Shown: positions 2,767-35,139 of the stretch, piece after piece | Layout of the letters: every line of letters starts with the position of its first letter | Position numbering within the stretch: position 1 is the first letter of the stretch | Origin: Lytechinus pictus | Taxonomy: Eukaryota | NCBI RefSeq assembly: GCF_037042905.1 | Contig: NC_087245.1 | Coordinates: forward strand, 14,696,001 to 14,756,000 | DNA: 60,000 nucleotides | Direction of reading: 5' to 3' | Translations under genes and position numbers: made by a program | The notes under the pieces: generated by a model | Told to the model about the DNA's origin: nothing | Database searches by the model: none | What the model saw: only the letters and a program-made list of their open reading frames with translations

Positions 2767-3137
2767 TAGCCAGGCGGCTTCTAGTACTAAGTTCTAGTAG
2801 AGAGTAAAAATCATTTACTAACGTAAGGTTACTCTCAGTCTCATACGAAGCCAGGCCTTCTATCTCATAGACCCACACAAAGGAAGCCAAAACCTGAAAC
2901 TTTCACCCCCGAGATTTCTACTTTCCTTCTAAAAGATCTAGCTCTAAATCATGTACATGGGATAAAACTTCATTTCCGACATTTCTACGCTCTCGTTGTT
3001 ATTTTTAAAACAAGAATTCATCAAAAAAATGAAGAAATATTGTGAAAAGACGGAAGAGACTTGCCCGATGTTTACGCCGCCATCTTGTTTCTTATTGTAC
3101 TCCCCCAACATTACGCGACGCTCGCGTCCGTAACGCA

Positions 3138-4233
3138 AGTTTGGCGCATTTTTATAGTTGCATTTTTCTTCGGTGTGTGGGAGCCTATACAGTCCGACCT
3201 CTCTTATCCGGACACGTTGGGACCAGCACCAATCCGGATAAGGGATTTATCCGGATCTGGGAGACCCAATATTAAATACACGAAGCTACTGCCTCCCCGG
3301 CCCAACGGCGGTAGCTACATGTTATCTATTGTATTGGGCATACAGACAGTATTCACTGCAGTGTCAGTGCAAATTATAGGCGGTATTTTTTACGGAAATT
3401 ATATCGGTCGATGGCCAAAACTGTTGGATAATTTACCTGCTAAAATGATTGAGGTATACATCGAGCATACCACGAAAGAGAGAGACTCAATGAAAACTAA
3501 GTTTTACAATTAGATCATCGCAGCGGGTATCGCAGCTTCGCAATGTCGGCCATTGTTATACTGACTGTAGGCTCAAACATGATAGATGGCGCTGTCCGTA
3601 TTGAGGCCTAACGTTAGCTAGCGAGACATGCGTTGATTTTCCCGGGAAACAAAAAGAAAACGTGCTGAAATATTTGCGATGCGCCCTGATTTACTGTCTA
3701 AGTCCTTTCGGTGATTTGGGGAAGAATTTTTCATTAAAAATATTGTTGTTGTAGGTAGACTATATTGGAAAATATATGTAATCAAAGAGAGTTTGCGCAT
3801 AGGATTGAGTTTAGATTGAAATCTCATTTCCTCACATGATAGATTGGATTGAAAAAAAAAAATCTCGGCAAGAGTGCGTCCGGATAATAGAGAGATCCGG
3901 ATAAGGGGAGGCCGGATAAGAGAGGTCGGACTGTATGTACAAACGCCAGGCGTTCGGGGAGTGACCATACGTAGTTTATTACTTTCACTCCCCAGACGCC
4001 TCCAGGCTACAATGTAAGTAGGCCTAGACTGTAGACAGACCTACATGTGTGTATACATTTTTTTTTTATTTCTCCTGCGAAGTGCGAGTCCTGGTACCTA
4101 GCCTGGAGGCTTCTGGGGAGTAAAGTCATCTACTATACGTAGGATTACTCCCGCATGAAGCCTGGCGCGGCCGTATATAGTTATAGGCTTCCACACACCA
4201 AAGAAAAAGGCAACTATAAAAATGCGCCAAACT
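3138..4233. repeat. Inverted pair of a ~130-bp TAGCCTGG-type repeat (foldback); left arm interrupted by a Tc1/mariner MITE
   Basis: 3138-3189 plus 3934-4009 is the reverse complement of 4099-4233 (e.g. AGTTTGGCGCATTTTTATAGTTGC vs GCAACTATAAAAATGCGCCAAACT). Further copies at ~2529 and ~2767-2890. Confidence 0.75.
3190..3933. mobile_element. Tc1/mariner (pogo/Tigger-like) MITE
   Basis: TIR CAGTCCGACCTCTCTTATCCGG / CCGGATAAGAGAGGTCGGACTG, TA TSD on both sides, subterminal CCGGATAA repeats. Confidence 0.88.
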
Positions 4234-4369: not shown

Positions 4370-4387
4370 ATCTGTTGACATCGCCAT
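4370..4387 (-). CDS. First coding exon (MAMSTD) of an unidentified divergently transcribed gene; the rest apparently lies left of the window
   Basis: Minus strand reads CCAAG ATG GCG ATG TCA ACA GAT|GTAAGT: strong Kozak/YY1 context and a consensus donor, in a CpG-rich region. No downstream exon found in 1-4363. Confidence 0.55.
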
Positions 4388-4651
4388 CTTGGATCCATTG
4401 TTATTGCAACCTAGACCTAGTTACGTGACGCGTATAGAGGGCGACAAAATCATGAGCGGTGCTAGATTAAAAAGTGCTAAAATGTCCCGCTTCAACTTCA
4501 ACTCGCCTCAACTGCTTCAACTCGCAAGTTGAAGCGACGAGTTCCGAACGCACGCACATCTACAAATGCAAAGCAGCGGCACAAATCGCGATATATACAT
4601 GTAGCGACTGGTAAATACGTCTGTAAGGATGATGACGTCATCCAAGATGGC
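4383..4651. promoter_or_regulatory. Putative bidirectional promoter
   Basis: CpG-rich relative to the introns. Inverted 12-mers GCCATCTTGGAT (4383-4394) and ATCCAAGATGGC (4640-4651), YY1-like. CRE TGACGTCA at 4633-4640; TTACGTGA at 4421. Outward-facing splice donors at 4369 (-) and 4735 (+). Confidence 0.6.
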
Positions 4652-4734
4652 AACTTACGTTGACCAACGAAAGGATCGAAATGACGATGTTTCGATCATC
4701 ATTTGAAAGGAATTAGCGGTAACTGCGGTCTAAG
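4600..4734 (+). other. CAMSAP: Putative non-coding first exon of CAMSAP (start approximate), containing a uORF
   Basis: AAG|GTATGA donor at 4734/4735 followed by T-rich intron-like sequence. ATG 4647 opens only a 19-codon ORF (MATYVDQRKDRNDDVSIII*). Confidence 0.5.
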
Positions 4735-5244
4735 GTATGATATTTCTGAATTTTATACATTTTTTCGTAAATATTCATGAATGTAATTTCTTTTTCATAA
4801 TGTGACATTTTATGTTAAAAAAATGATCGGAAAATCAGGTTTCCGCCGAAGGTTAGATCTAACGTTACTGCTAATACGTTGTCTGTACGTACGGGCCTCC
4901 AAGCTCTTCAGTCTATGTATTGGTGAGTGAGCCAACGCAGTTCAGCGGAAAAACCAAAATACAGAGACTGAAGCTTTTGGTCTAAGACATTACTCAAGTT
5001 CCACAGAATAAAAACGAAAGTTCAGTTGAAAGGTAGATATATATGTATAGTGTAAATAGTGCAAAATGTTGGGTGACATCAAAATTAAGAGACTTGCTGT
5101 TGTATTACAAATAAATTACAAATAAATACAAATAAATTACAAATGATAAAAATGTACAAGCCCACTTTGATTACACCACAGTGTATTTCAAAAGATTTTG
5201 CAACCTTCAATACATTCATTTCAAGTATGAAAATTGTGTTCCCT

Positions 5245-6733: not shown

Positions 6734-6784
6734 ATGGACTCCGTCCCAGAGGTCATACCGATGAGGAGTTATAATTTTAGGAAG
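6734..6784 (+). CDS. CAMSAP: CAMSAP/Patronin coding exon 1 (MDSVPEVIPMRSYNFRK); the exon begins at 6526 with 5'UTR
   Basis: Acceptor TTTCCAG|6526, in-frame stop TAA at 6713 upstream, AGCATGG context, donor AAG|GTGGGT. Resembles the CAMSAP N-terminal E(I/V)xPL..Y motif. Confidence 0.85.
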
Positions 6785-7163: not shown

Positions 7164-7262
7164 GCCAAACTGAACTCCTCTGTGGCTTGGCTCCTTAGCA
7201 AGGCTTACAGTGATAGAGAAGAACCACCTGCAGATCTTCTTGATCCACTTTATCAAGACAAT
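7164..7262 (+). CDS. CAMSAP: CAMSAP coding exon 2 (AKLNSSVAWLLSKAYSDREEPPADLLDPLYQDN)
   Basis: CAG|...|GTAAGT, phase 0-0. Matches the conserved AK..A.L.W...KAY.....P.DL.DP.Y motif. Confidence 0.92.
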
Positions 7263-7289: not shown

Positions 7290-7790
7290 ATGTTGATGAT
7301 TACATGTATGTGATGATGAGGAGGATGAAGATGACATTGATGATGGTGATGCTATTGATGATGATGGTGATGATGATCATGATCATGATGGTAATGATGA
7401 TGATAATGATTATAATGATGATGATGATGGTGGTGGTGGTGGTGGTGCTGCTGCTGCTGCTGATGATGATGGCGATGATGATGATGATGATGATGGCGAT
7501 GATGATGATGATTATGATGATGATGATGATGATGATGATGATGGTGGTGGTGCTGCTGCTGCTGCTGATGATGATGATGGCGATGATGATGATGATGATG
7601 ATGATGTTGATAAAGTAGAGGATATGTTGTAATGGAATTGATTGGTGATGCCTAGCAATGGTGATTACAAAGGTAGTACAGTAGTTGAGATGATGATGAT
7701 GCTGCTTGATGCAGATTATGATGGTAGTGATGGAGATAATAATGGTTAGTTGTCATGGTGCTTTTGTTGCAATGGTGATGAATACTTAAC
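7290..7790. repeat. Compound trinucleotide microsatellite (GAT)n/(GGT)n/(GCT)n
   Basis: Long gatgatgat runs with ggt and gct blocks; an internal ~105-nt block is duplicated. Confidence 0.95.
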
Positions 7791-8094
7791 ATCAATTTTG
7801 TTGATGCTGCTATGACTAGTTTTGTGCTCCTTGAAGTGTGTACCGAGTAACGCACCCAAAAATGCGAAGATCGCTTCCCGAAGAATGGTTGTGGCTTCAC
7901 ATACGCTTAAACGAGCTTCATGATGCAAACTTGAAAAGCGTCTTGAAAACCACATAGCAAGCTGGTTCTCCAAACTGGTTTGCAAGACCAATATTGATTT
8001 CAAGACAGAGCACAAGCTTCTCATATTATGTTAATCTGGTTTCCACTAAATTGGTATCCACTTAATAGGAAGTAGATGAGAATTGGGTCCAAGC

Positions 8095-8240
8095 CACATT
8101 ATGAATGGGTACCAGGCAGGAGTAATTCCTTGCATGCACTGAGCGCCGGTGATGGTAGCCGGGGTAATAATAGCAGCACTTTGTATCCTCAGGCAAAAAT
8201 CACTTTATAAATCCAGCTATTATTTTTATTATTATTCATT
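8095..8240 (+). mobile_element. 3' fragment of a SINE/L2-like retroposon
   Basis: AATGGGTACC core and a tail CACTTTATAAATCCAGCTATTATTTTTATTATTATT, typical of SINE 3' ends. Confidence 0.4.
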
Positions 8241-9074
8241 AATACTAAAACATTTTTGTCGCCCAACCCTATTTTAATATTGGTCTGGACTGGTTTGGTT
8301 CAATAAGGCCTTGGCCTCTGAGGTCTGAAATCTTGAAGTACATGTAAAGTACATGGTCTTAGCCCTTAGTGGACTTAGCCCTTGCAGTCAAGGCTTACCT
8401 GGCATTGCGCCCAATCACTGACTTGATGTTCATGATGGTCATTGTCATGGATACAGGTTGTATGATTGAAGATGATGATGATGATTGATAAGAAGATGGT
8501 GAATATGGAGATGATCAATGCTCAAATGAATTTATGATGAATATTGAAAATGACAATGACAGTCTTTCATCATGATAATGCAAACCTTTTTTTTTTAAGT
8601 GTTAGTTGCTTTTGAAATTGGGTGTATAACTGAGAGACATATAGAAAGCAATGTGACCACTTTATAAAGGATTGTGTCTGAATTTTCAAGTAACATTAAT
8701 GTGATAATGTCTAATATTCTTTTTGCCTGTCTCGATCGAAGTTTCATATCTGTACATGTTAACCAATATGGTACTGATAAATGATAATGATTCAATATCT
8801 ACATGTAAGTGACATATTTACAATATTATGGTTTTGGTTTTGCTTTATTGAGGAAGTAGACAAACAGATGTCCCATACATATAGGGCTTTGTTTACAGGA
8901 TTGAAAAATGTGTGAATTTATAATGTAACATACCCTTCATTTTAGTTCATTTGTTTAAAGGGAAATTGAACTACTTGCTGTGTTCATAATACCTTTAATT
9001 AATTAAATAATAGATTGCACTCTCAGTCTCAGAAAGAAAATGGTTTTCCATTTTTTCATCTCATCGAATGTTAG

Positions 9075-9290
9075 GGTGAAGACCATGTCAAACCATCTGT
9101 CATCTACCAGCTTGCATCAGGGGAGCTGTACAGTCGAGTGTGTTCCAATATCTTTCCTCCTACCATCCATCCATGGGATGGACATGTAGCCATCATCCAA
9201 GGTTTCTCTAGGAGAGGAATCCATGTGGTGGATGATCGGAACCAGCCAGTCACAGAGTCTATACTCTCACAGACTCAGAAGATAAAACTG
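9075..9290 (+). CDS. CAMSAP: CAMSAP coding exon 3 (GEDHVKPSVIYQLASGELYSRVCSNIF...GFSRRGIHVVDDRNQPVTESILSQTQKIKL)
   Basis: TAG|...|GTGAGT, 72 codons, phase 0-0. Homologous to CAMSAP1 EHIKPPVI.LL.S.ELYCRVC...LSRKGIYV...PVTESDL. Confidence 0.93.
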
Positions 9291-12200
9291 GTGAGTTGAG
9301 GATTAATCTATGTAAATGTACAGTGTACCTAAATCTTTTGATCAACCATGCCATACATTTTGGGTTTATTTTTTGTGTGATTTGAATTCATTTATTTATT
9401 TATTGTAGGTATGGTAATTCATTTTTTTTCATTTCAGAAATTTATTTTCATTTACTCATTCATTTCTTCATATTTTTCTCTTTCATCATTGATCTATTAC
9501 TTTTATTATTATTTTTTTGGGGGAAAGGGGGCATGAGTGGTTGTTTACCTCTCAGTTGACTGGTTTGTATAAATACATGTACCTGTATTCATATTACATG
9601 TACATGTAGTTATTGCTGTACATTTCAGTCACGTATTACATGTATATGTATATCATCCTTTTCCCCTCCTTAGACTGACCATTTGGTCCATACCCCCTTA
9701 CCCCGTGCCTTATGAAACCCTGAAATGGGGGTTTAAGGAAGTGACTACAAGGGTAAAATACTGAGTCTTGGGAAATGAAAATATGGGGCAGTGTGAAAAA
9801 CAGGTCCATACTCTCTCTTTCTTTCTCTTTACCCCCCCCCCCCCTGTTTTTGTAATTTGAGAGATGATATTCTAAGGAAATGAGTTATCTAAATGCAAAT
9901 GGAAATGGATTAGATACATGTACATAATAGACATTTTTTTCAGTGATGCACAAACCCTCTTTTCTTTTGGAGCCTCTGGCTACATATATTAGCCCATGAT
10001 ACATAATCTATCCTGTCATTTCTTTAATTGTCTGGTTTCAAATACATGTAGTTGCTTGTTCACTTTTGTTAAATTTCTATTTTTTTAAGTAATTCGTACA
10101 AGGACATGAAATTTGATGCATGTTAGTGATGTTAACCTATTCTTTGGAATATGAATATGGAGGTTTCACATTTGCAAGGAAATACATATATGTGTCCATG
10201 ATTAACTCTAATTAGACCTACTGATTCAAAACATATTAACACAAAACATTTAAGAAACGGTCAGCTGACTTAGGCCTATATCTTAGGCCTATGTTCTGAA
10301 AGAATGAATTTGTATTCACTACATGTACTTGTATACATGTAATTTTGCTACACGTAGCATTACTGCATGTACTGTACACACACATGTGTAATTAGTTATG
10401 TTTCAAAGAAAACAATGGATGGGCGATTGGGCGTGAGTCTTTCTAAAAAGAGGCAGATGATTCTGTCCGCAGGAATTTTTTTATTAGTAACTGTGCCTAA
10501 ATTATCATCTGGCACAGCCAGCAGTGGGCTGCATAGTCAGTGCATTAGTACAAGTGTGAGAAAGAATAAAGTGAGTCATAGACGATGTGCACACACAGAC
10601 ATACATGTACACACAAGGGATACATGTATGTACAATGCATTCTATACATTGAAGGTAGCCTACTGTACATGTACGTTGGATTGCACATTCAGACTTGCCT
10701 TTGAACTCTAACAGTAAGGATTCTGTGGGGTGTAAGTGCATTTTGTGCAGCCTTGGTGCATACAAGACAGGTTGCAGCTCACAATTTTCACTGTCATTAC
10801 ATGGAAAGTGCATACATGTACATTTTTACGATTGTCCAACTTTGTTTGAATAGGGCACAAACAAAGTCCGTTATTCCATTGAACTACAGTGATTGGTTTT
10901 CTCCATTCCTTGATGACAGTGTATAATGAAGGCCTACATTTGTGCAAATTGGTTTAAGGCTTGATAAAAAAAAAAATGTATAGGTTGTAAATTTTATTGC
11001 TTGTAATTTGTATTTTGATAATGCATTACCTGCCTTTAATGTTTTCCAAATACACAGGGCTGGAACACTTTACCATAATCAATGTATAGAAAAAAACAGG
11101 CTTGAGTACATACATGTACATCATAACATGCCTGTACCTTCATAATAAGTTGTTTCCAGCTTCTTTCATTTCTAAGTTTTCTCCTGCAGGCTGTCATCCT
11201 ACCCCCCCCCCCCCCACCAATTCTGATAAAGATGCAAAGAAACCTGAATTTATTTTTTTCATTTGAATTTGAGATGGAAAAATAATGTTCGAAGAAGCTG
11301 GGAAGTCATACAATCACCCAGTATTGTTGTCTACATTGTTGAATATCAATTTTGTCTTACATGTATGTGGTACAAGAGTGTAAAGCTCTTTATATTGTCT
11401 ACTGGACCTTATTGAAATCTTTATCCCCTCCTGCTAGGCTTGGTACACATTTTGAATACAGAGAGGTGAATAGCCATTGATTTGTTTACTACCCAGGGGT
11501 CTGGTGGCAAGCCCCCTGCACAACAACTACATGTACATGCATCAGTATACAAATACATACGGTAGTCATCAGTTTGTCTTGTACAGTTATGTTGGTCAAC
11601 ATGACTGACATGTCTGTTTACTCCATGAACATTGTGCATCATTCAGTGCACATTACATTTCTTACTGTACGTGTACAGTACTTTTTTCTCAAATTGGTAT
11701 GGTTCACCCTATCGGCCTACGTGTTCATGGAGGCCTACAACATGCCTATTTTCCCCAATTGCAGTGATATTCATCCTTTTTTAAAGTATTCATTGTAATG
11801 GTGGGGGCCTTGCCAGATGTGTGGGTGAGACTTCACACATTGTGTATGCCAGACGAACAATTGTCATGACCTTCGGATATGCTTTCTTCCCCCAAATTGG
11901 TACATATTTGACACAGGTTGCATAAACATTTAACATCACCATGCATGTGTACAGACACAGTTGCAGCTTTCTGAGCTTTGTTCTTTTGTTTTGCTAATAT
12001 TTTCTACATTTTGTTCCATCTAGAATTGGTATTGTACATGCACATGTAAGGTCTTCAAAATAAATTTGTTGCGAAAATTTATTTGAAAAGAGATTTTGTT
12101 TTGTTTTGAGTAAACACCTTCATGTCCATGTGACACTAGATTTTTTCTTGTACATGTATATTACCCTAGCCCTACTGTAGGTCACAAAAACTTTTGACAC

Positions 12201-13582
12201 TTGATAGTGTAGGGCCTGCATTACACATGAGAAATGACACGATATTGGGGGGAGGGCAAAAGTACTGATACTGAAGGGACCTAGACCAAAGTTTATTATA
12301 TGCCTGAGAATTTTTTTTTTGGGGGGGACCATTCAACTGTTGAAAAAATTATTATTTTATTTACAAGCAGTTTTGTTTAAAACTTGCGAGGACGGGGGGG
12401 GGGGGGCATATTAAAAGGAAAAGGTTTATTGTATGAAGTACATGGTGTAGGATAGGCCTACATAAATCCTTGGTCAATTCACTCCCACATTGAGATGAAA
12501 TATTATATTTCCTTTAAGTCCTGACTGAGTAAATGACATTGACCTGTAGTCCCACAACATTGTTTTGAGGAAGTGTTGATTAGAGATTAGGGTGCATTGA
12601 ATGATAGTTACAGTGGAACCTTACACAAATTACACCACTACTACAGATCATTTCCCTTTGGATTGCATTAATGTCAATCAGGGCTTTCCTTTTTTTACAC
12701 ATAGGTCACATTGAAAGAAAAAACATGCATTGTACATACATTGTATTTACATGATGTGCGTCCTACTGTCCTTGCCTCTTGATTTTTGAAAATTCATTTT
12801 ATTGTATCGATAAAACTGATTTTGTATATAGACCTACATTATTCTTTTAAGAAGCCAGTAAAAGTATGGCAGATGCATAAACAATCATACTTATGCATAC
12901 ATGCAGTAAAATGTATCTTGTTTTAAAAAGAATGATAAATGGTTTTCTCATTTTTCTGCAATAAACATAATATCATTCAAATGTACATGTACATGTATGT
13001 CTTCCCTCCCAAAGTTCTCAATATTGACATTTTTAATATTGCAAATAATAAAAAACATATATGGAAAATGGTCGGATCCTATTTTGTGTTATTCATATTG
13101 AACTCTCCTTTGGATCACTGCACTTTCATACTATTAAATTGTTTATTAATCAATCATATTATTTTCTCCTTTAACATAGGTGAGATAATATAGTTTGTAC
13201 AGAATGATAAATTGTAAGCACTGTATGATGCACAACATAGTATTTGTTGAATTGAAAAATATGTACAGTAGAGAGAAGAGAATTTTGTTTAAAATATTTT
13301 CAAGGTTATTTCAGCTATACTTTAGGGTTTACACTGTAGGTATTATTTTGTTACTGGATTCAATTAACAGTATTATATGAATTCATGCATGATCAATCAT
13401 TTGTGCTATTTTATTCAAATCAAATTCAGATCCACAATGGGGAAATGGTCGGCAGTGGTTTTTGAGATGTGTGGGATCACTGAATATTGTACAGAAAACC
13501 AGAAACCACTTCCAGTTGCTGCTTTGAAGTGCTTTCATACAGATAAAGATTCATAAAAAAAAATTATTTTGATATTTCTGTT

Positions 13583-13811
13583 TGTTGTAACTCCCGTAGG
13601 AACTCGGCAGGACAGCGCTTGGCTGGTAAACGCCAATCTATTTTACGTCTACATGTACATGTAGGTTAATCAGTCATAATGGCTGACCTTATAGACGACA
13701 GATATTACTCTCGGGCCTTTATATCAAAGTGGAGACAATGGCAGAGTGGGGATTCGAACTCACAACCTTGCCATTATGAGTCCAATGATCTAACCACTGG
13801 ACCACACGACC
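13583..13811 (-). mobile_element. tRNA-derived SINE
   Basis: Minus strand starts GGTCGTGTGGTCCAGTGGTTAGA (A box) ... GAGTTCGAATCC (B box), followed by a non-tRNA body and a short ACA-type tail. Confidence 0.8.
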
Positions 13812-14425
13812 CGAAATGTAGTTTTGTACATTATATCTTGTTGGAATATTCAACATTGATGCCCCAGCCCGAGTAGTACTTTTATGTACATGTAGTAAGG
13901 TACTCTGCATGAGCATGTACATACATGTAATACTGTACAGACCTGTATTATGCATACAGGTTTTATGATGAAACTTGTCAAGATCAAATACAGCGTACAC
14001 ATGGAACAGATGTGTGATTGTTTGCTCAGAGTTGAAATCAGTACTTGATAATGATAATGTTGAAATATTCTTTGTTTACTTCTCTTAAAATAGTTTCAGT
14101 GATAATGAAACAAACCAGTGTGACACACCGGCCTTTCGATCTCTCAGTGTCGTGCTTGGTCCAACGATGATTTAATCCCCCCTTTTATCGTGATGCTTTT
14201 TGTATATTTATGTGAAACTTCATAGAGAGGATTTTTTACAATATATGACTGTTACATGTATGTAGTTATTGTTATTTTCTTCTCTGTTTCTTTCTGCAGT
14301 GTGAATCTTTACCACGTGCATTTAAGATATTGGTTGGTACTTTTTCTTTAGACATACTGTAGTTGATACATTTCTAACTGCTTCAAAGAGCTTTGCAATA
14401 AAAAAGCAACTAATTTACATTATTA

Positions 14426-14894
14426 GGTGGTTTCAGACCGCCTCGAAGTTCGCCAGTTCCAGGTATTCTCTGATCGGAAAATTTACCCCGATCAGAAAAT
14501 ACCAGGTATATTGGCGGTGTGAAAGCAAACTACGCGTAATATCCCCGAAAGAAAATACCCGATAAATAGTAGGTACTTGGCGAAATTACGAGAACTTTCG
14601 CGGGGATTTTTCCAAGGTCGTGTGTATTTTGGCGGTCTGAAAGCAAATTACGGGAACTTTTAGCCCAGCGTGTCGTTGGGTGCGGCGCCGTGCATGGGTT
14701 GCTGCTGGGCTAGTGATTTTGAATTTTGCGCCTTGCTGCTTATCAGACCATACTGCGCATGCTCGTAACTTCAGGAACTTATCCCGAAGGGTATGTTTCA
14801 GGGCGGTGTGAATGCAGGAATAATTAATGGGTATTTTTCAGCCTAAAAAAGTTCTCGTAATTTAACGGGGATATCGAGGCGGTTTGAAACCACC
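14426..14894. mobile_element. PIF/Harbinger-like MITE
   Basis: TIR GGTGGTTTCAGACCGCCTCGA / TCGAGGCGGTTTGAAACCACC, flanked by TTA / TAT. Internal repeats GGCGGTGTGAAAGC. GC-rich island within an AT-rich intron. Confidence 0.8.
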
Positions 14895-15650
14895 TATTGA
14901 CTCCATTTTTAATAGCACCCAAAGATCATGAGGATATCACACATTGATACATTTTATGGATTCAGGTTTTGTTTTATTCATCTTGTACATGCATGTCAGG
15001 CCACATTATGGACCTTTTCTTAAACTGCCAGTCATATTTATTCATTGGAGCCTTGCCCTTGAACTTCAATATTGCACAGAGCCCATGCTGATATTTGAAA
15101 AAAATAAAAATTAGTATGATACAGTATTCTTCCTTTTGCCTGTGAATCCTGAATATTGAGTGTTGATGCTTGTCAGACATACATGAAAAAGGTTCAAATC
15201 AATCAGATATTTATTATTTTATACAAATTAGTGAAGTTCTTGTTTCCATTTCAACTATATTATTGATAACCTTTAACAATACTACATGTACATGTAAACA
15301 CCAGTATACGGATACTGTTCATTTATTGGTTTTTCATTTTCTAATGATTTGCTTTAACTCTTTGCACGCTGAATTTTGGAGGGATAATAATGACAATTGT
15401 TTCCATGTTATTTTCTTTAAATTGAAGATTTCCATATTGCACCATTGATAATCATTATTATTATTACATAGATGTTATTCAAGAGCCTTTGCCTTTTATT
15501 AGCTTATCTAATTTGATGGTGGGGGAGGGAACTAATTATTAGGATTGTTGAATTTAATTGTGCGAATGTGCAAAATTGCAACATCAGCACACAAAGGGTT
15601 AATATTACTACATGTACATGTAGTTAGATTTTCAGAGCAGTCATATTTAT

Positions 15651-16202
15651 ATAATATTGACTGGCCTTGAGGGGAACATCAAATATATTGCCAGCAAAAG
15701 AATCATATTGGCCCGAGTCTTTAGACGAGGGCAATATGGGTCATTTAAGGGCAATATATTTGATGTTCCCCGAAAGAAGAGCCAGTCAATATTTTTATTA
15801 TCATCCAAATCAGATATCTAGAGCAAAAATCATGATAATGGGGATATTTCTTTTAAAAATAGAGTTCTATTGTGTCATGTTAATATCGGTAAAGGCTCTG
15901 CACTTTACCATTATGACGTACTTGCAAGCGCTCGGATCCAGCGTTGTCTTTATTATGACGTATAGTGTTGGTGCGCGGATCCTTATGAAGCGTATCACTT
16001 CATTCGCATCCTCAAATGCCCGGATGTGAGACCAGGGAAAATACAAAGGTATATTTTGCGTCGTCTCTGCATGCAAAGTAAATACGCGCATTGAGACCGA
16101 GGAAAATACAAACAATATACCTACCCTTCCCGATATTAAGAAAATGTAGGGCAATACGGTTTTGTAAATGACCAGCTCAGATGTCTGATACGGGTGATAA
16201 TG
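15651..16202. mobile_element. Interspersed element with a ~140-bp terminal hairpin (possibly a non-autonomous Crypton-like element)
   Basis: AATATTGACTGGC..GGGGAACATCAAATATATTGCC (15653-15692) pairs with GGCAATATATTTGATGTTCCCC..GCCAGTCAATATT (15750-15793). CpG-rich body. ATTATCATCC / GGGTGATAAT inverted pair at ~15797 and ~16192. Confidence 0.55.
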
Positions 16203-16664
16203 TAGTATATTGTACATACATGTAGCCTCACGTGCATGAAGGTGGTATTTTCAATAAGTTACTCCCTTGAATTGGAGCAAACAGACAACTGCTGAGATGG
16301 AATGTGACTTTTTGTCACCAGTTTTTCAGAAATCTTGCCAATGTTTACAGTTGTGGGATACACAAAGCTTAATGATGTGCCAAAGGTTCATGGATGATTG
16401 AAAGAAGATAATTTCCTCATATTTTTGTAATGGTGGAAAGATATTTCATTTGTGAATTATGTAAATATGAAGTGTTTGCCCTCTGAATTTTTTATAATCA
16501 TAAGAATCTATAAGTCAATAGATCTATAATATTTCTTGACCAATGTTGTTATGTTCAAACACTTATTATTCTTATTAGAAGAGATTCATTTTTATAATCA
16601 AGGATTATTTTATTTTAGTTGGACTATTTTTTTTTTTTACATTTAGTGCTTTGATACATGTAGT

Positions 16665-17200
16665 CCCGGGGGGGGGGGGGGGGGGGCACTCAGTATATAA
16701 TGCATAGTGGGTATGTGCCGCGGAGGGGACCCCCATTTTCACACTCAAATTTCCGTTCCAAGGCATAGCATTTTTGTCTTATTGAGAAAAAGAACAAAGA
16801 AAGCCGCTCCAAAGCATAGCATTTTCTTCTTATCGAGAAAAAAGAAGAACGATATCCGCTCCAAAGCTTCGCATATTTTCCGTTACGCCGTTCCGGTCGC
16901 TGAGCCGCAATTTTTGGTAAAAAGCGGCCGCAGAGCGCTGTCCAACCATCGCCTCTGCGCGAGCGCACCTGGCCGGCGGCCGTGCGCCGTGCTAGCTGCA
17001 TGCACGTACATGTATGCCCGTTCCATTGGGATGCACACGCAGGCGACCCATTCCAAGGACTCCTGTTTTCACAAACATTTGTAGTTACGAGGACCATCCT
17101 TTTTATAATAAGCCCGCTCCAAGGCCCCCGTTTTTTGTCTCGCCCGCGGCACATACCTACTACTTTTTTGGTCTAGTGCCCCCCCCCCCCCCCCCCCGGG
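16665..17200. mobile_element. Young non-autonomous DNA transposon with CCCGG(G)n termini and 8-bp TSD
   Basis: TIR CCCGGG(G)nCACT / AGTG(C)nCGGG; subterminal GGTATGTGCCGCGG / CCGCGGCACATACC. Perfect TSD CATGTAGT at 16657-16664 and 17201-17208. Confidence 0.88.
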
Positions 17201-20200
17201 CATGTAGTACATGTATGAGGATATGCATTGTGCTTATAGAACTAATTTGATCATCTATCAACAAAATTGATTTTGTTTTTTCCCCCTCTACATTTCTTTA
17301 TTGCCCCATCTCCAAATGAATTTTTGGTAACATGTACATACTGGTAGGTGTGGTATGTTTTAAACTGCCTCTTCTTAAGTATGTGTACTGAATTTGTGAC
17401 GTACAAAATAGAGATATTATAATATTTGTAGTTGAAAACTAGCAAACAATATAATCAGCATGGTAAAATCTTTATATGAAGTTTTACCATCACTTCTACA
17501 TAGAATAAAGTACTGTAACAAAAACACTGTCACTATTATTGTATAAAAAAATCCTTTGTCAGTACCTACATGTAGATTTGTTTTTTCCCAGGGTTTTTCC
17601 CATGAATTTCTTTTTTCTTCCTTTTTATTCAAATTCAGATAAATTGTTGGATTGGAAAAGTAGTATAGTTGTTTTCGACTGGTAACTGTTTAGTTAAACT
17701 CAAATTGTTGCGTGTACAGGCAAAAGTCACTATTAATGAAATTTATCTATACATAGTAATCTAAAAAACAATAAAACATTTAAAAGTCAAAGTAATATAA
17801 TGGAATGTTGTGCTTATTTAATTGCTTCAACATTTCCTTAGTACAGATTAGCTTAAAAATGTGTCACGTACATGTATGTTGTACAGGTATGTAATTTGTG
17901 TGATATCATATAACCACTTGCAAGGTCAGCTACATGTACATTCAGAGAATTATGACATTCACTACTGAACACAGGAATGCTGCAAAAATATGGGTGTGTT
18001 AAAGTGCAGTAAATTTGCAGTGGGAGTATTATCATCTGCAACAGATGTACACAATATTTCTCACCACTTTAGAAAATGGTGATGAATGAGTGAGGCATTG
18101 AGAAAATTAGAAGGTTTGTGATTACTGCATCATGATTAATCCAGTGATTCAGATTTAAAAATCACACCAATGCTTATCAGAAACTATAAATGGTCTCACG
18201 ATATTCATATCAATTCACTTTGACGAAGTATTCTTTTATGATTGCACATACATGTAGACTATACATGTACATTCACGTTTTTTTATATTGTGAATTTTGA
18301 TCTGAAGATGAACATGGACTATCTCCAGCAAGCAACTGTAAGTTAATACTTGCTTCACTTTCACAGAAAATGGTTTTGATTGCTGTCTCTAGTCTAAGAG
18401 AGATGATTTTCAGAATCCATCTACTTTGTTGTGTTATTTTTAGCCTAAACCTCTATCCTTACACCCATTGAACTTGATATTTGAACTAAAAGAACTTAGG
18501 TTTGAGAGTCCACTTTTGAGATGTGAAGCTGAATACATGTAGCTGATTTCAGTTCTTTATTAATGCTATTTTTAAGGGATTTTTGTGTGTGAATGCAGGT
18601 GTACATAAGGAGTTTTGCACTTTCAGTTTTTGTTGTTCAACAGCTCTTTTTTTGTGATGACACACGAAAAGGGGTATAAATCTCATTATGCAAAATCAAT
18701 TTACTGGTAGTTTAAAACTGTAAGTAGTATGTTAATAGTTGTGATATTGTTTTTGATCAATATGCATCCTTCTTTTTGTAGAAAGTTGTGTTTAATTGAT
18801 CAGAACTTCCTATCTCAAATGATATGATATTAATATTTATTTTAAATAATGAATTTCACAGATGAACTTCCATGATAACAATAAATTTCATGTACACCTG
18901 TATAATTATCCGTAATATTGCATCTGATCATGGATGCTTGGATGGGATTGATAATGGTAGCTGTTATGAGTATACATTTGAATATAATTGGATTCTCTGA
19001 ATGGAAGTATTCTGATGTGGAGAAAAGTTGTTGTTTTTTTTCTTCAAAATCTCCTTATTTTGAAAACCCGCCTTGATGCAGCACAAATCCTTGACATGAA
19101 GTGCACATTGACACTGACATTTGTAGGTTTAGACCACACACAAATATTTCCAGAGTTATGTGTGTTTCTTTCACCTTTCTTCTCTATATTTTACACAGGT
19201 CTTTACTTTATACTCCACAATTGTACAAGTTTGTTTACATGGGAAATTAGCTGTAGGGTCTTTATGATTCTATAGAAATTTACAGGCTTTTGTGTGCCTG
19301 CGTGGAGGTGTGTCTCTATCCACAAAGCATGACCCAAATATCTTTTAGCTTGTGGACTAGACCACTTTAAAAGTTTTTAAATTCTTTCATTCTTTTCAAG
19401 TTTGTTGTCACTGAATTCAGTTAAAGATTTCCTTCGAAGTTACCATGCACATGTACACATGTAGTACAGGGCACACAGCACACTGAAGAGTGGTTTTGAG
19501 GAGTAGGCCTACACGTACATTGTAGTTTACAGCATATTACTTTTTGGGACAGTACTGAATATTCATGAAACTAAAGCAAGTTTGACGTAAACAAAAATGT
19601 ATTTTTTTACAAACTACACGTTCATATCTGGGTGATACTTTGTAACTAGGGGATATGTTTTCCATGAATATTTTCCCAGGTATTAATTAGAAAATATTAT
19701 GTGATATCCATGTCCAATATTTTAATAACATTATTTAATACAAAATGACAGAGGCTCTTCTCTGCTCATTGCTCAGATCCTAACAAAAAAAATAACTTTC
19801 ATTTATTTAAACATGGAAAGCAGTAATCTTGGATGCCTAAATTAATATTGATCACAGTGCACATACAAGGATGGAACCTGTACAGTCTCATGGTCTTTTT
19901 CATGATTGAAAATACATCCCTTTTTGGTCAAGATTGAATGAATTCTTTCTATTATTCTGTGAGCTATGCTTACACTTCAGTTATATTTACACAGCACTGT
20001 CATTTGTTTAGGAGATCTATTCAGTCTACATTCTTGGAGTAAGATCTGACACCTCTCTGTTGTCTTCTTGTTCTGACTTCAAATTGCTAAGCAAATGTTT
20101 ATTAAGAGAATGGTCCTACAAGTGTAGTGACAGAATTTCTCAAATATGCATGTAGGCCTATACAGGTAGGTTCATTGATAAACGTAAAGAAGAAGAAAAA

Positions 20201-23200
20201 TGGATTCACTGAATGGTATGTCTCACGGACTCTCACTTGATATTTGTTTTTTGCCAGTCAATCTGTTTAAAAATCGCTTCCAATTGGTATAATAAAAAGA
20301 GAAAACATGTTTCTGCTAAAACTTTGAAACCAACGCGATGTCGGGGTACACTTCCTCTTTAAAAAACACTTTGAGCTCCACCTTCCCTACATTTTACACT
20401 TGTATGTACAACTACATACGAATGTACATCGTGTACTTGTACCAGACACACCTCTAGCAAACCCAGTTAGGAAAACCAAGCTTCAAGTTTATTATCCAAA
20501 CAAATTAGTCTGTTTCACATTTTCTATGCATTCTCCGAGGTGCAGTGGCTGTAACCTTTAGGGACACGAGTGACTGACTTGGAGTAATGTCCATAGAAAT
20601 ATACAGTATGCATGTATGACAGATAAGGCTCATTTATAATAAACCTGTTATCCATTTTCTATTTGCTTGTCCTGTCAACCTGATGAGTTTCATAAAGACA
20701 AAGAAACAATAGGTGCTTTTACACCTGCCCTTTACAAAAAAATGCCTGGTATTTTCACCAAAAGAAAGTACACACAGATTGGCAGATGCTCAAATTACAA
20801 GAATTAATCCATGTTTACTGTTGCATGGATATTTTAATACTGAAAGGAAATTACCCCCCCCAAAAAAAAAATAAAAAAATATATATATATATTTGAGGAA
20901 AGAAGTTGGCCTATGTGCATCCTTTGCAAAAGGAGTGCCTGTCTTTTTTTCGGTCCATAATGAAGAGAACTTTATCTGGTTCAGGTAGGTGTAAGTGCAT
21001 AAAATTAATGAACCTGCATTTTGAGGCTCAAAAAATTTCTCATGATTTACAGGTATTTTCCTGATTGGGCAGATATGAATAGAATCTGATAATCTGATGT
21101 CTTTGTCATTCCATTCATTGAAGTCATGATTTGCATCAATCTACATGGTTTTAACAGGAAAATAAACAGACTGCTATCCAACTGATTGATTTTTTGAAAT
21201 TTGTGGTCATGCTAAGCAGCTTTCTCATAACTAATTAGAACCTGTTTTCCATAGCCAGTCTGTAGCACTAACTGCTAAAACACCCCCTTCTATTCTTTCA
21301 GTGTGAACTTGTACACTTTTTTATGTATGAACTGTTTGGGGATATTGGTTATATTAGCCCCTGTTCTTTCTGGGGTTTTCTTAGGGTAGATGCTTCTATT
21401 TTTGAAAAATGTTATAAATGAGAATAGTGAGCTGAGAGTGTTGCAATTTGCAATATAGACCTGCAATTCATAAATATATTAAAACCGTAGGCCTATTAAA
21501 TTCAGGTAGAAAATCAATTTATCTTTTCTTTGGCAAGAAGCAGAGTAGCAATAAATTACAAATGGCAATTCCAACACACACTTTGGAGCCTAATTAGAGA
21601 ATACTTTTTAAGCCTATGATATTGCTTTAATTCTCTATGTGCTTTGTATTGCATAAGTCTAAATATGAATTTCATATTAAAGATAATTTATTATTAAAAA
21701 GAAAATAGTGACAAAACAATAAGGTAATTCATCCATTTTAACACTAGGAAGTTTTTTGCAAAGCTCCCCAATAGTGAGTTGGAATATTATGTCTGTACTG
21801 TTACTTGAATAATCTTTATCAAATGCTATGAAGCACAATGCTGGATACTAGAAAGTAAAATGGAAAATGCCCATTCCACGTGGTGCCACGCCCTTTCCCC
21901 ATCTCAATATTGATGATGTACCCAGCAATATATTGAGAAGATGCTGGCTGGTAGTCCTGGAGCATCATTAATGATCAATCCAATTCCTTTTTTATCTCCC
22001 TTACATAAATAAATTCATGGAGTTGAGTAGGATGATTATATGTGCACAGTGTCTGCTCAGTGTCTGGGAGAGTGACTCAGACTATTGTAAAAATTAGGCG
22101 CATGGTGAGAGATGCGATTTATGAGGTTTTGATGGATGCATTCACTGCTTCCAGGATCGCATTATTTCTTTTAAAGGTACATGTACATTTGCATTGTGCT
22201 GTAAAGAATACTTATGATCTTCCTAATTTAATAATTTATGGCATAGCTTTTCCATGTAAAATTGTTATGAGGAATTTCAAATGTCATAATTTATTACATA
22301 CATGTAGCCATAGAACAGATGATAACACAAACTTATATTGAGGTTGTCAAAAATAAACCTTTCAGTTAGAGGGGTTAAAAGGATGATGACCTTGCATTCT
22401 TGCAATGTATTAAAACCAAAAATGACAGAATCCTTTTATTAAAGTGCATGGATTTAGCTTCATTTTTTTTTTTTTTTCTTTGTATGATACTATGAAGAAG
22501 AAAAATTAATCCCATCTCTATTGAAAAAAAAAAACCTCTCGCACAGTTGATCAAAGACAGTCGTAGGTTATACACATTTTGTCGCCTTTAACTCTCACTG
22601 GGAAAAGCAAACTTCTGAAGGAGTAGGATAACTGTGATGCGGTGAATTATGATATGCCTACTTTGGCTTGATCATGACTATTTATGCACGTAAGAAGAGA
22701 CCTACACATATTGACTAATGCGTGACCTGGAAGCAATTGACTCAAAGGGAAATCGGAAAGATTTGTGTTTTCCTATGCACGTCTCTCTCTGGTTTACTGA
22801 ATATGAAGGCTACATTTTGAATAGGCCTATAGAATATACAGTATATAAATGCATATAAGTAGATAAGTGCCTATAAAGTAGATGCAAATAGTGCAGTATG
22901 AAATGTTCAGGATACATTAGATATTTGATGTAGCTCACCTAATGGCAATGAATTTTGATAAATCTAGTTTACATGAACTTTGCAAGCTACAGGTTATTTT
23001 CTTGATCATATAATAGTTATCAAGTGAGGAAACTCACTCTTTTGAAAATAAATCCTATTATTGGTATCTTTCACACTGGTCAGTGGTAGTAGGCCTGAAT
23101 TTTGGTTATGTAGTCTATAAAATAGCACAAGGCCTTCAAATTCAGAGAAAGACAAGACTTATGCATTTGGTTGGATATTTTTTTCCTTTTGAATTTTCTA

Positions 23201-24052
23201 TGAATCTGATAATTACCAGACACAAGAATGTTAGGCCATTTTATATGAAGGTTGGCTGCATGAAGTAAACAGTCTAGAATACCAGAGAAAATGATATACT
23301 TGTGTTTTCATTTATGTATTTCTGTTTGTCAAACCACACAAAAACGTACCTTGAAATAATTCAACAAGTTACTTACAGACCACAATAATCTTTAATAGCA
23401 ATGTTCAAAACTTCCCCCCCACAAAGTCCTCCATCAGGCCAATGTCACAAAAATTCTTGCATGTAATTGCTTAGTTTTATTGTGCAAAACTCTTCTAGTC
23501 ATTTAGAAATTAATTCCATTAGTGGCTGAAGGACTCTCCACAGACTCCACTAATATTGATCCATTTGTCTCTGTCACAGCAAACAATGCGCATTAAATCT
23601 GACATTCATGTTTAAAGATTATAATACCTTTATATTACATGGGTATGTATGTATTTTTCTTTGATTGTTTTCTTCATATTTTTATTTTCTTCATGATGTT
23701 TACTAACAGAAAATAATTTCTGGGTGTAAAAGGCTGAGGCAAGATTGTGTTTTATTATCATGGAGGTCAAAAAGTGCAACAAATAATGACTGGAGTGAGT
23801 CATTGGTACAGTAGTAAAAAAAAAAAAAAAGAACTCACAAAGATAATTTAAGCTTATTATGCATGGGATCTGACACAACTGAAAATAGGGGAAAATTGTG
23901 TTATAGGAAAGTGCAGATGTCTTGTTTATGAATGTAATGATTATATTTGTATAACTTACTATGATTTTTCCTATTTTATCAAATGTTGTCCTAAATATTT
24001 TGAATTTTACAATTTCTTTTCTATTCTTTTTCCTTTTTTTTCTTCACTACAG

Positions 24053-33194: not shown

Positions 33195-35139
33195 CACAAC
33201 AAAAAAGTAAGTCCCCCCTTAAACAAACATCAATAATTTCCGAACCAATGCAAGTTTTTTTATATATCTAATATATCTTTACATGAGCGTGTAGGTAATT
33301 TTATAAGCTTCCCTCTGAGTAAATGTTATGGACGTATTTTACGTCATGCTTCAGTGAGCACCGTCAGAAGGCAAAAATGTCACTTTTCAAAAGTCACAAG
33401 CCAAATATCATGACTTTGATTCCATTTTATTAGAACTAATTCCACATTCTCATCATGAAAAATAGTCAGAAGGCTTGTAAAAGGTACTTTCTAAAAGACG
33501 ATACAACTTTTTTGGCTAAATTTCACGGTTGAATAAACACAAGTCCAAATTTGCTATAATTTGATTTTTACACATTTCTATCAATAAAAATGATGGAATA
33601 TGATGACAGTTATTTTTGGGAAGAGTATCTTCAACAATATTCATCGTTTCACGGTTCAATGAACATTTATTGAAAACAAAAAATGCGATTTTCAAATATC
33701 ATAGGCAAGTATTGTTTCATATTGGTAACTGAAAATGATCTTTCCTCAACTTCTTCGTTATGTTCATGACCAATTAACATGCTTCAATGATTCAAAGGCG
33801 TTTAATTAAACATTCACGCTTGAATGAACATGTGGAATGTGATTAGCTCTTTTTTACGTTATTGGAAAAAATGCAATTTTTAACTATGGATATCTGTCAC
33901 AAACCTCCTTGCATAATTCATTTGATTTGATTTTTATGAAAATCCCGATGTTTAATGCATCAGTGAGCACACAATATTAGAAAATTATGCAAATGAGAAG
34001 AAAGTTCAAGGCCTTGGCCCCACTCTGTGCCGAATGGAATGGTTATTTTGGTGTGCGCGCCTTTTAGATAGTGTTACTCTGAAGCCATGTGCGGAGTTTC
34101 ATGAAATAACTGTTGGCAGAAGTAACAAAAACCGTACATGAAACAAACCCTCATTTCATATTTGTTAAAATTTTGACTTCCTCTCTCATAGACTTGTGTA
34201 CATTATGGGTGCATATGTTTAAGAATAAGTAACCCCTTATTCAATAATGGTGGAACTTTTTTTCAAGGATGTCTTTAGCAATGCTATTTGGCAGTAATGT
34301 TTATCAACCTATGGGCAGAATTCTGTGCAAAAATGAAATCGACTTGTTTATTTATGGATGAGTGAGAAACGCATCAAAGTGGAAAAATTTGTATTTTCAA
34401 TGTCACAGACTCATTTTAAAGGGTAATAAACTGAATATTGGGGGCAAATTCAGTTTCAAATGTGACTTTAATTGCTGTTGTTTTTATCATCCATCATTTC
34501 GATCACAACACACTTTCCGAACTTTTAACATTTCCATGGTTGAGCGAGCACATTCAAAAACTTAGGAATGAATACTCTTTATACTGCATAAATGTATTCT
34601 TTTCATAACAGTTTCTTATGATCAGTTTAATTTATGGACAAATCAGTGGTGGATCCAGAATTTTAAAATGGGGGAGGGGGAGCCACCAACATATTCAAAT
34701 TTTAACATGATCTAACAAGTTGTAGAGGATACTACCATAAACCCATATGAAGCCCCCCCCCCCTCCCGCTTCCGCGGACTCTACAATACATTGTGCTCAC
34801 TCAACCATGATCATACAATATCAAAATTGTGTGTGGAGTCACTGGAGTGGCTAAATGATGGATAGTAAAACAGCATTAACACCATAAAATTCACCTAAAA
34901 CAACTTTTGCCCAACTTTGTATTTGCACAATCTGAAAAACGACTCTTGTGACTTTCAAAAATTGTCATTTTTAATTCAATCTTTAATTACTCATGCATGA
35001 CTCAACCGATCAATCTCATTTTTCCCCAGGAGTTGTTTAATGAGTGTAGAAAACCACCTACAAAATTTTTTATCTAAAAATAATTCTGTTCAAAAGTTAC
35101 AGCAAATTGATTTAAGGAGGACTTACTTTTTTTGTTGTG
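33195..35139. mobile_element. ~1.95-kb non-autonomous TA-target (Tc1/mariner-like) DNA transposon; a hAT-like fragment is nested at ~34644-34780
   Basis: TIR CACAACAAAAAAGTAAGTCC.CC.TTAAA / TTTAAGGAGGACTTACTTTTTTTGTTGTG, TA flanks, subterminal inverted similarity (AAAGTCACAAG / CTTGTGACTTT). No transposase ORF. Confidence 0.8.

Follow-up and report, generated by a model that had tools for sequence, protein, structure and literature searches.

Excision footprints, the few bases that a departing cut-and-paste transposon leaves at its target, are otherwise known from single loci and assays. Here we consider a stretch of 60,000 nucleotides (the window) from the echinoderm Lytechinus pictus (RefSeq assembly GCF_037042905.1, contig NC_087245.1, positions 14,696,001 to 14,756,000 of the forward strand), in which the introns of a CAMSAP/patronin gene carry a dense field of one 8-base palindrome, TACATGTA. 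The palindrome arises by the insertion of six bases at a TA, and we propose, with a probability of about 0.8, that its copies are scars left by the excision of cut-and-paste transposons that target TA and end in CA...TG, probably of the pogo type. The insertion is read directly from alignments; that transposon excision wrote the letters is something we infer and do not see.

The closest described systems leave a range of scars. For Tc1 in the C. elegans germline, TACATGTA (class L) makes up 24 of 103 frame-restoring excisions (PMC4490562, Supplementary Data 3), and at the same site it accounts for 10 of 36 when ligase IV is missing and for 3 of 39 when polymerase theta is, the latter with more than 20-fold fewer events in all (PMC4490562); these figures come from one frame-selected site whose flank itself starts with TG, and to that extent count less for our case. 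The usual somatic Tc1 scar is +4 (78%; PMC12632400, see also PMC13148408), and the canonical Sleeping Beauty scar is +5, TACAGTA or TACTGTA (PMC6943129, PMC520745). Passer, of the pogo superfamily, inserts toward the 5′ ends of expressed genes at the target AAGTACTT, and its footprints, measured in cultured human cells, are 0-4 bp (PMC9976928); those of ZB are 0-3 bp (PMC7913693). In rice, 94 DNA-transposon excisions had heterogeneous outcomes (PMC4423477). The word is also quoted as the preferred Irx site and as a conserved Phytophthora promoter motif (motif-1), for which the authors rejected a footprint origin (PMC3520976).

In the window, the original prediction, made from the letters alone, had placed about 40 copies between 7.3 and 18.6 kb. 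Exactly 40 start in 7300-18545, out of 48 across the window; every TACATGTA coordinate that it listed is correct, as are its five overlapped doubles (9595, 12984, 13650, 15283, 15609) and its six TACAGTA/TACTGTA sites (11 exist in the range), and downstream of 22.4 kb we count 4 copies, as it had estimated. The word is the commonest 8-mer of the region, while its one-mismatch neighbours have 0-4 copies each. Markov models of orders 0 to 3, trained on the region itself, expect 0.38, 0.48, 1.6 and 3.1 copies; at order 4, where the model is contaminated by the word itself, the expectation is 10.7. The enrichment survives the higher-order background models that the prediction had proposed as a check. 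The field also has an edge. Within one coding-exon interval there are 37 copies in 9291-18545 versus 2 in 18546-24052 (p = 6e-6), and the remaining 30 kb of the gene holds 4 sites. This edge, at about 18.5 kb, falls mid-intron, with a CpG observed/expected ratio (o/e) of 0.21 in the field and 0.23 beyond it. None of nine coding exons tested contains a copy.

Where do the words come from? Two field sites, 13650 and 17007, lie in multi-copy repeats and are hence testable: the first is a double in a repeat resembling a short interspersed element (SINE), with a tRNA-like head judged by eye, the second a single copy in a GC-rich element. At each of them, 29 of 29 sister copies read plain TA. A genome-wide pattern search for any insert at these same TAs returns 6 SINE copies and 12 copies of the GC-rich element, and the inserts are of the CATG type in 3/6 and 3/12 (window copies included), plus one CTG. 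The CATG insertion thereby recurs in 2 other SINE and 2 other GC-element copies, on different contigs, and these are independent events, because the copies are without the private indels of the window copies. One GC-element copy, in another field on contig C9, has been hit at three separate TAs (two CATG, one CTG), and the 2.45 kb flanking it hold 17 words. Outside the field, sister copies are shorter at the window's scars at 4596 and 975 (+6 and +4).

The same result emerges on a larger scale. An all-against-all comparison of 211 sequences (1.44 Mb, with 8 loci dropped as duplicates) gives 122 insertions that can be polarised. The 21 of 6 bp divide into 10 TA+CATG+TA, 7 tandem and 4 other, and inserts of other lengths include 2 TA+CAG+TA and 1 TA+CAATG+TA. 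When we start from the words, 29 TACATGTA sites have at least 2 alignable sisters: 19 are +6 (of which 4 were pattern-picked, 2 lie in a pattern-picked copy, 1 is the index site and 2 share an event), 6 belong to a repeat family, 4 differ by other lengths, and none is a same-length variant. Point substitutions in place of 6-bp indels would have spoken against the original prediction; there are 0 in 29, and its expectation that sisters read TA is borne out. Thus, TACATGTA arises as TA -> TA-CATG-TA, independent of its flanks, in independent repeat copies. At the tested sites it is a net insertion with the TA duplicated, as in a footprint, and a flank-independent insert requires a template from outside.

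The alternative that the prediction itself had offered was a CpG-deamination sink, in which TACATGTA derives from TACACGTA, TACGTGTA or TACGCGTA in a methylated gene body. The density of the word does climb from 0.17 to 0.93 per kb over 424 tiles as CpG o/e falls, which favours such a sink. But five other CATG palindromes stay flat, at 0.24-0.41 per kb, over the same range, the sibling product TATGCATA stands at 19 versus 186, and the field ends with no change in CpG o/e. With no substitutions at 29 sites and plain TA in all 29 sisters, deamination is refuted as the main source, and we regard it as very improbable.

Overlapped doubles were predicted to be re-insertions into a footprint TA. The SINE double, at +12 relative to its sisters, supports this, as does the frequency of doubles: 22 in 420 words, against 223 generic 6-mer tandems in 102,337, or about 24-fold commoner. 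Per TA, doubles in dense tiles are at about 4%, near the base scarring rate of about 3%, as re-hits would give. The same comparison speaks against local slippage or microsatellite expansion of TACA, TGTA or CATG units, a process suggested by the many sites that abut such units and by one +4 difference from a related organism, at 10602. Slippage is insufficient for single sites, where insertions occur with no local template, and we find it hardly credible as a general explanation, even if some doubles and triples may come from it.

If the words are scars, one may ask for the company they keep. We compared 31 dense tiles with 132 sparse CpG-poor tiles, with TACATGTA masked. Between TAs, CAG/CTG is found 43 vs. 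18 times (dense vs. sparse), CA/TG 109 vs. 79, CAATG 17 vs. 3.1, CACTG 9 vs. 1.4 and CCGG 7 vs. 0.7; CACATG is also in excess in dense tiles, and control words are flat. With two bases left per end, the CA-series would represent full, minus-one, minus-two and plus-one joins, and the CCGG word fits pogo elements with CCG...CGG ends and open frames. The reading of TACAGTA/TACTGTA as Sleeping Beauty-type scars, also part of the original prediction, fares well insofar as these words are co-enriched and occur as insertions, but a 3-nt cut is unnecessary for them, as they equal TACATGTA minus one junction base. The flanks of solitary scars resemble a transposase target, being rich in A at -3 (0.49 vs. 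0.32) and poor in T at -1 (0.16 vs. 0.33). A second over-represented TA-palindrome is TAGGCCTA, with 98 copies in the 424 tiles and, in the window, sites at 10271, 10284, 12453 and elsewhere. Its distribution is unlike that of TACATGTA, with a tendency toward CpG-rich DNA; as a GG...CC scar it gives a clean +6 at 0 of 3 testable sites, with one supportive read-through in the related organism, in which one contig end at 11111 has TACATGTA followed by GGCC-TA.

Scarring at this locus spans time. The scar at 16655 predates the GC-rich element, because the target duplication of the element copies part of that scar (15 of 17 copies of the element have a 7-8 bp target duplication), and the scar at 17007 postdates its insertion, because all 29 sister copies read TA there; scarring therefore took place here both before and after the element inserted. 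Six repeat segments in the field, 4-8% diverged, have 3 hits in about 119 original TAs, small numbers which hint at rates of similar order for the scarring of a TA and the substitution of a base. Dense tiles have an excess of about 70 one-mismatch words and of about 175 exact ones, from which we obtain a mean decay of about 5%, with an exact-word count that tile selection inflates.

A related organism, at about 4% substitutions, was closely compared over 1.6 kb (12 of 97 gaps listed). Sites 10320 and 10334 are common to both organisms, and the listed X5 deletions in 10161-10602, which sum to 51 bases as the lengths require, leave both untouched. Over 1.7 kb of unique field DNA, three sequences of organism C depart from the window by a single gap and by no letter, and are uninformative on polymorphism. 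The shared sites bear on another possibility, namely, that scars arise everywhere at similar rates and that selection has retained the cluster in this intron as binding sites, for example of an Irx-type homeodomain. The word matches the Irx site as reported in PMC3520976, the field edge is sharp, and one-mismatch variants are fewer than exact words. On the other hand, young repeat copies in fields are multiply hit, including by CTG, CAATG and CCGG, which would not bind alike; spacing of the sites in the field is irregular, three other field sites are altered in the related organism, and a decay of about 5% fits neutral ageing. A cluster of Irx-type sites cannot be the origin of the words, and we consider their retention by selection to be rather improbable.

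For excision scars, the question is rather which elements could have supplied CA and TG. The inserted bases are the terminal bases of TA-flanked elements with terminal inverted repeats (TIRs) in the same genome, in three CA...TG families. The two TA-flanked CA...TG elements named in the original prediction, at 3190-3933 and 33195-35139, are real. The first is a miniature inverted-repeat transposable element (MITE) with 440 candidates genome-wide, 4 of 19 other fetched copies being 99-100% identical; we take it to be pogo-like from the resemblance of its TIRs, which had no match among 20 DDE_1 loci. A 1.9-kb Tc1-like family has 729 candidates, about 99.5% identical, with many open frames of 364 aa, and the third family is non-coding, of 1.76 kb, with 1091 candidates. 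Of the element ends, 36/36 (MITE), 35/35 (Tc1-like) and 38/38 (non-coding) are TA-flanked. The MITE target profile fits the scar flanks at -1 and -3 (p = 0.61 and 0.52), and MITE flanks are CpG-poor in 68% vs. 22% (p = 6e-4). The Tc1-like family is very young, its near-identical open frames running into the hundreds, and many of its copies (e.g., L221:448-2349) form inverted, partly duplicated pairs within 1-2 kb.

Other mobile elements turned up as well. Pogo-type elements with open frames and TA-CCG...CGG-TA or TA-CTG...CAG-TA ends occur at L315:2286-7202, L317:3760-7489, L326:3855-6275 and L328:4083-6450, the first having 432 exact end matches in the genome. Multi-copy DDE_1 elements of 3.6-4.9 kb with C-terminal cysteine-rich tails (L309-L311, L313, L320) had no TA-CA ends that we could find. 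Clustered open frames at L087:6877-9884, for which Pfam gives tyrosine-recombinase and GDSL-like matches, are probably a mobile element, and in the field a lone TA-CAGTGGAACCT at 12608-12625, like the end of a 175-bp TA-flanked MITE family, is possibly a relic. We rejected the pattern TACAGTVRAACCTC, with 49 matches vs. 98 for its control and flanks that are not enriched. Of two de novo TIR surveys, the first was swamped by satellite and the second mostly paired scars with each other.

The field in CAMSAP is a strong case of a common, patchy, genome-wide pattern, and is not unique. Thirty arbitrary 10-kb tiles hold 117 copies of TACATGTA (0.39 per kb; mean 3.9, variance 31, maximum 24); scaled up to 812 Mb, this makes some 2-4 x 10^5, or about 300,000. 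Exact triples number 449 genome-wide (the reversed control, at 113, reads the same repeat in another phase), and the 9 triple loci looked at, the first on C1, are all CpG-poor (0.22-0.36). Around one triple is a denser field, with 30 copies in 3 kb (L306, G000:C1:13737141-13740160). Other fields adjoin CpG-rich tiles on C1 or lie over the likely 5′ and middle part of a mitochondrial-carrier gene on C12. The C12 field is the only one for which neighbouring genes could be oriented by Pfam scans (of 290 candidate frames), T-A skew being too weak for the purpose. By distance from CpG-rich DNA, in 5-kb bins, density runs 0.43, 0.77, 0.76, 0.40, 0.89, 0.44 and 0.38 per kb. The promoter-proximal polarity of the original prediction therefore stands locally, in the drop at the edge of our field, and is unproven as a general rule.

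A number of results weigh against an excision origin, and we gather them here. The crude distance profile is without a clear 5′ trend, leaving general 5′ polarity unproven. Among the matches listed and the 1.6 kb closely compared, we saw no element occupying any of the sites, be it in other copies, other haplotypes or another species, and sites 10602, 10813 and 11111 show untidy indels in the related organism, with no clean 6 bp. We found no autonomous pogo element with CA...TG, or TA-CA...TG-TA, ends around 20 DDE_1 loci, and no cognate transposase for the scars, only candidates. The MITE target profile deviates from the scar flanks at -2 (p = 0.004), and neither Tc1-like family fits them at any of the three positions. 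Some of the 19 cases of +6 were picked by pattern or share an event. At the two TAs searched by pattern, 11 of 18 inserted copies have other inserts (local duplications, AT-rich, CCGGG), and 0 of 28 polarised 4-bp insertions are classed as TA+CA/TG+TA. The dominant scar is thus not TACATA/TATGTA or TACAGTA/TACTGTA (polarised: 10 CATG, 2 CAG/CTG, 0 CA/TG). Finally, surviving elements are not concentrated in fields: word density in their flanks is 0.42 (MITE), 0.24 (young Tc1) and 0.10-0.12 per kb (CAGTGCG family), against 0.39 in arbitrary DNA. Excision therefore takes an extra assumption, either that intact elements are lost from such introns or that the family has not been found. Of the excision origin first predicted, insertion at TA stands, and excision itself is unproven.

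Several of these points would suit a process independent of transposons, by which TA sites in transcribed and methylated DNA acquire an invariant CATG and a further TA, such as a nuclease or repair activity with a built-in template: the missing filled allele and transposase, the surviving elements that are not enriched in fields, and the dominance of +6, unlike most characterised footprints. Such a writer, however, needs a template from outside, and element ends supply exactly CA and TG; moreover, the second word that co-enriches, CCGG, fits a pogo family that has an open frame and ends in CCG...CGG. We know of no enzyme of this kind, and find its involvement unlikely.

Excision scars could come about as follows. 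An element would insert, duplicating TA, and its transposase would later cut two bases inside each end, leaving CA and TG. End joining, perhaps through polymerase theta as in germ cells of C. elegans, would mostly keep all four bases, and would sometimes lose one or two, or add one. The scar would then supply two new TAs, and because these have A at -3 and G at -1 on their inward side, in keeping with the preferred target, doubles and triples would follow. A chromatin zone over the first ~15 kb of a transcribed gene would raise the hit rate, and intact elements there would be excised or purged, so that only scars pile up; this stretch of the gene would have been hit repeatedly in the germline.

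More tentatively, and with odds that we would put below even, the picture may be general: in genes expressed in the germline, pogo-type transposases would cycle in and out of a sharply delimited zone of chromatin within the first ~15 kb, TA scarring would run at about the substitution rate, theta-type repair would fix a self-attracting word, and some 300,000 scars would form a fossil map of germline transposase access, minting Irx-type sites. If the words are inherited scars as proposed, the insertion-excision history of a germline could be read from one assembly. The scars would also indicate which repair pathway serves the germline of an echinoderm, give models of intron evolution an insertion mutation tied to its context, and caution against taking every palindrome that abounds near genes for a binding site under selection. 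In the open-access literature, outside which most subscription journals lie, we found no work linking pogo insertion to H3K79 methylation, and a part for that mark in the zone would be speculative.

The host of the field is a CAMSAP/patronin gene on the plus strand, with Pfam matches to the CH and CKK domains and a large exon 100% identical to a protein given in one source as Lytechinus pictus CAMSAP. Downstream of a CpG-rich putative promoter, the field extends from about 3 kb to about 14 kb. The CpG-rich DNA at 3070-3100 and 4380-4660 has GCCATCTT/AAGATGGC words on both strands, which we take to be YY1-like; it is partly duplicated in L081, and is possibly a bidirectional promoter. Features of the window are collected in Table 1.

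Table 1. Features of the window that bear on the palindrome field, with positions counted from the first base of the window.
Feature	Position	Strand	Remarks
MITE of 744 bp, TA-CAG...CTG-TA; best candidate family for the scars	3190..3933		
CpG-rich putative promoter region	4380..4740		composition only
CAMSAP/patronin, first coding exon	6734..6784	+	by-eye match to N-terminus of P0001
CAMSAP, coding exon	7164..7262	+	
Field of TACATGTA: 40 copies (35 clusters, 3.6 per kb) and 11 TACAGTA/TACTGTA	7301..18541		all intronic; count
CAMSAP, coding exon with CH_CAMSAP2_N domain	9075..9290	+	
Double scar	9595..9608		sequence count
Double scar	12984..12997		sequence count
SINE-like repeat reporting the insertion	13583..13810	-	1879 first-look candidates; nearest of 29 sisters 7.6% substitutions away
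Double scar in SINE-like repeat	13650..13663		+12 vs. plain TA in 29/29 sister copies
CAMSAP, micro-exon of 33 nt inside the field	14300..14332	+	matches P0001 (by eye) and P0002
TA-GG...CC-TA element inside the field, without TACATGTA	14426..14894		
Double scar	15283..15296		sequence count
Double scar	15609..15622		sequence count
GC-rich element	16665..17200		8-bp target duplication 16657-16664/17201-17208; 3.9% from nearest sisters
Single scar in GC-rich element	17007..17014		+6 vs. 29/29 sister copies with TA
Element of 1.9 kb, TA-CAC...GTG-TA	33195..35139		93% identical copy elsewhere

The mechanism that we propose is of a known kind. What we have not found described in the open-access literature is its scale, so uniform a +6 scar, and the confinement to bounded zones. 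Tc1 footprints share with our scars the TA target, the CA...TG ends, the 2-nt 3′ overhangs and the word TACATGTA itself. They differ in that the worm somatic scar is mostly +4, whereas here +6 dominates, a further point against excision, and in that worm germline excision is, as far as described, rare and mostly masked by homologous repair, while here the scars are inherited, number on the order of 10^5 and form dense fields. The Sleeping Beauty 7-mers co-enrich in the fields and occur as insertions in repeats, but here they are a minority, and readable as TACATGTA minus one base. Passer likewise targets TA, preferring A at -3 and a purine at -1, but we found no CA...TG Passer-like transposase here. 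The rice excisions, the closest parallel that we found on the scale of a genome, are, like ours, inherited scars recovered by genome comparison; here one stereotyped word prevails, at a far larger scale. As for Phytophthora motif-1, the word is identical and, as here, highly abundant near genes. The same process may lie behind it and other TACATGTA "regulatory motifs"; the difference is that in Lytechinus an origin by insertion is shown.

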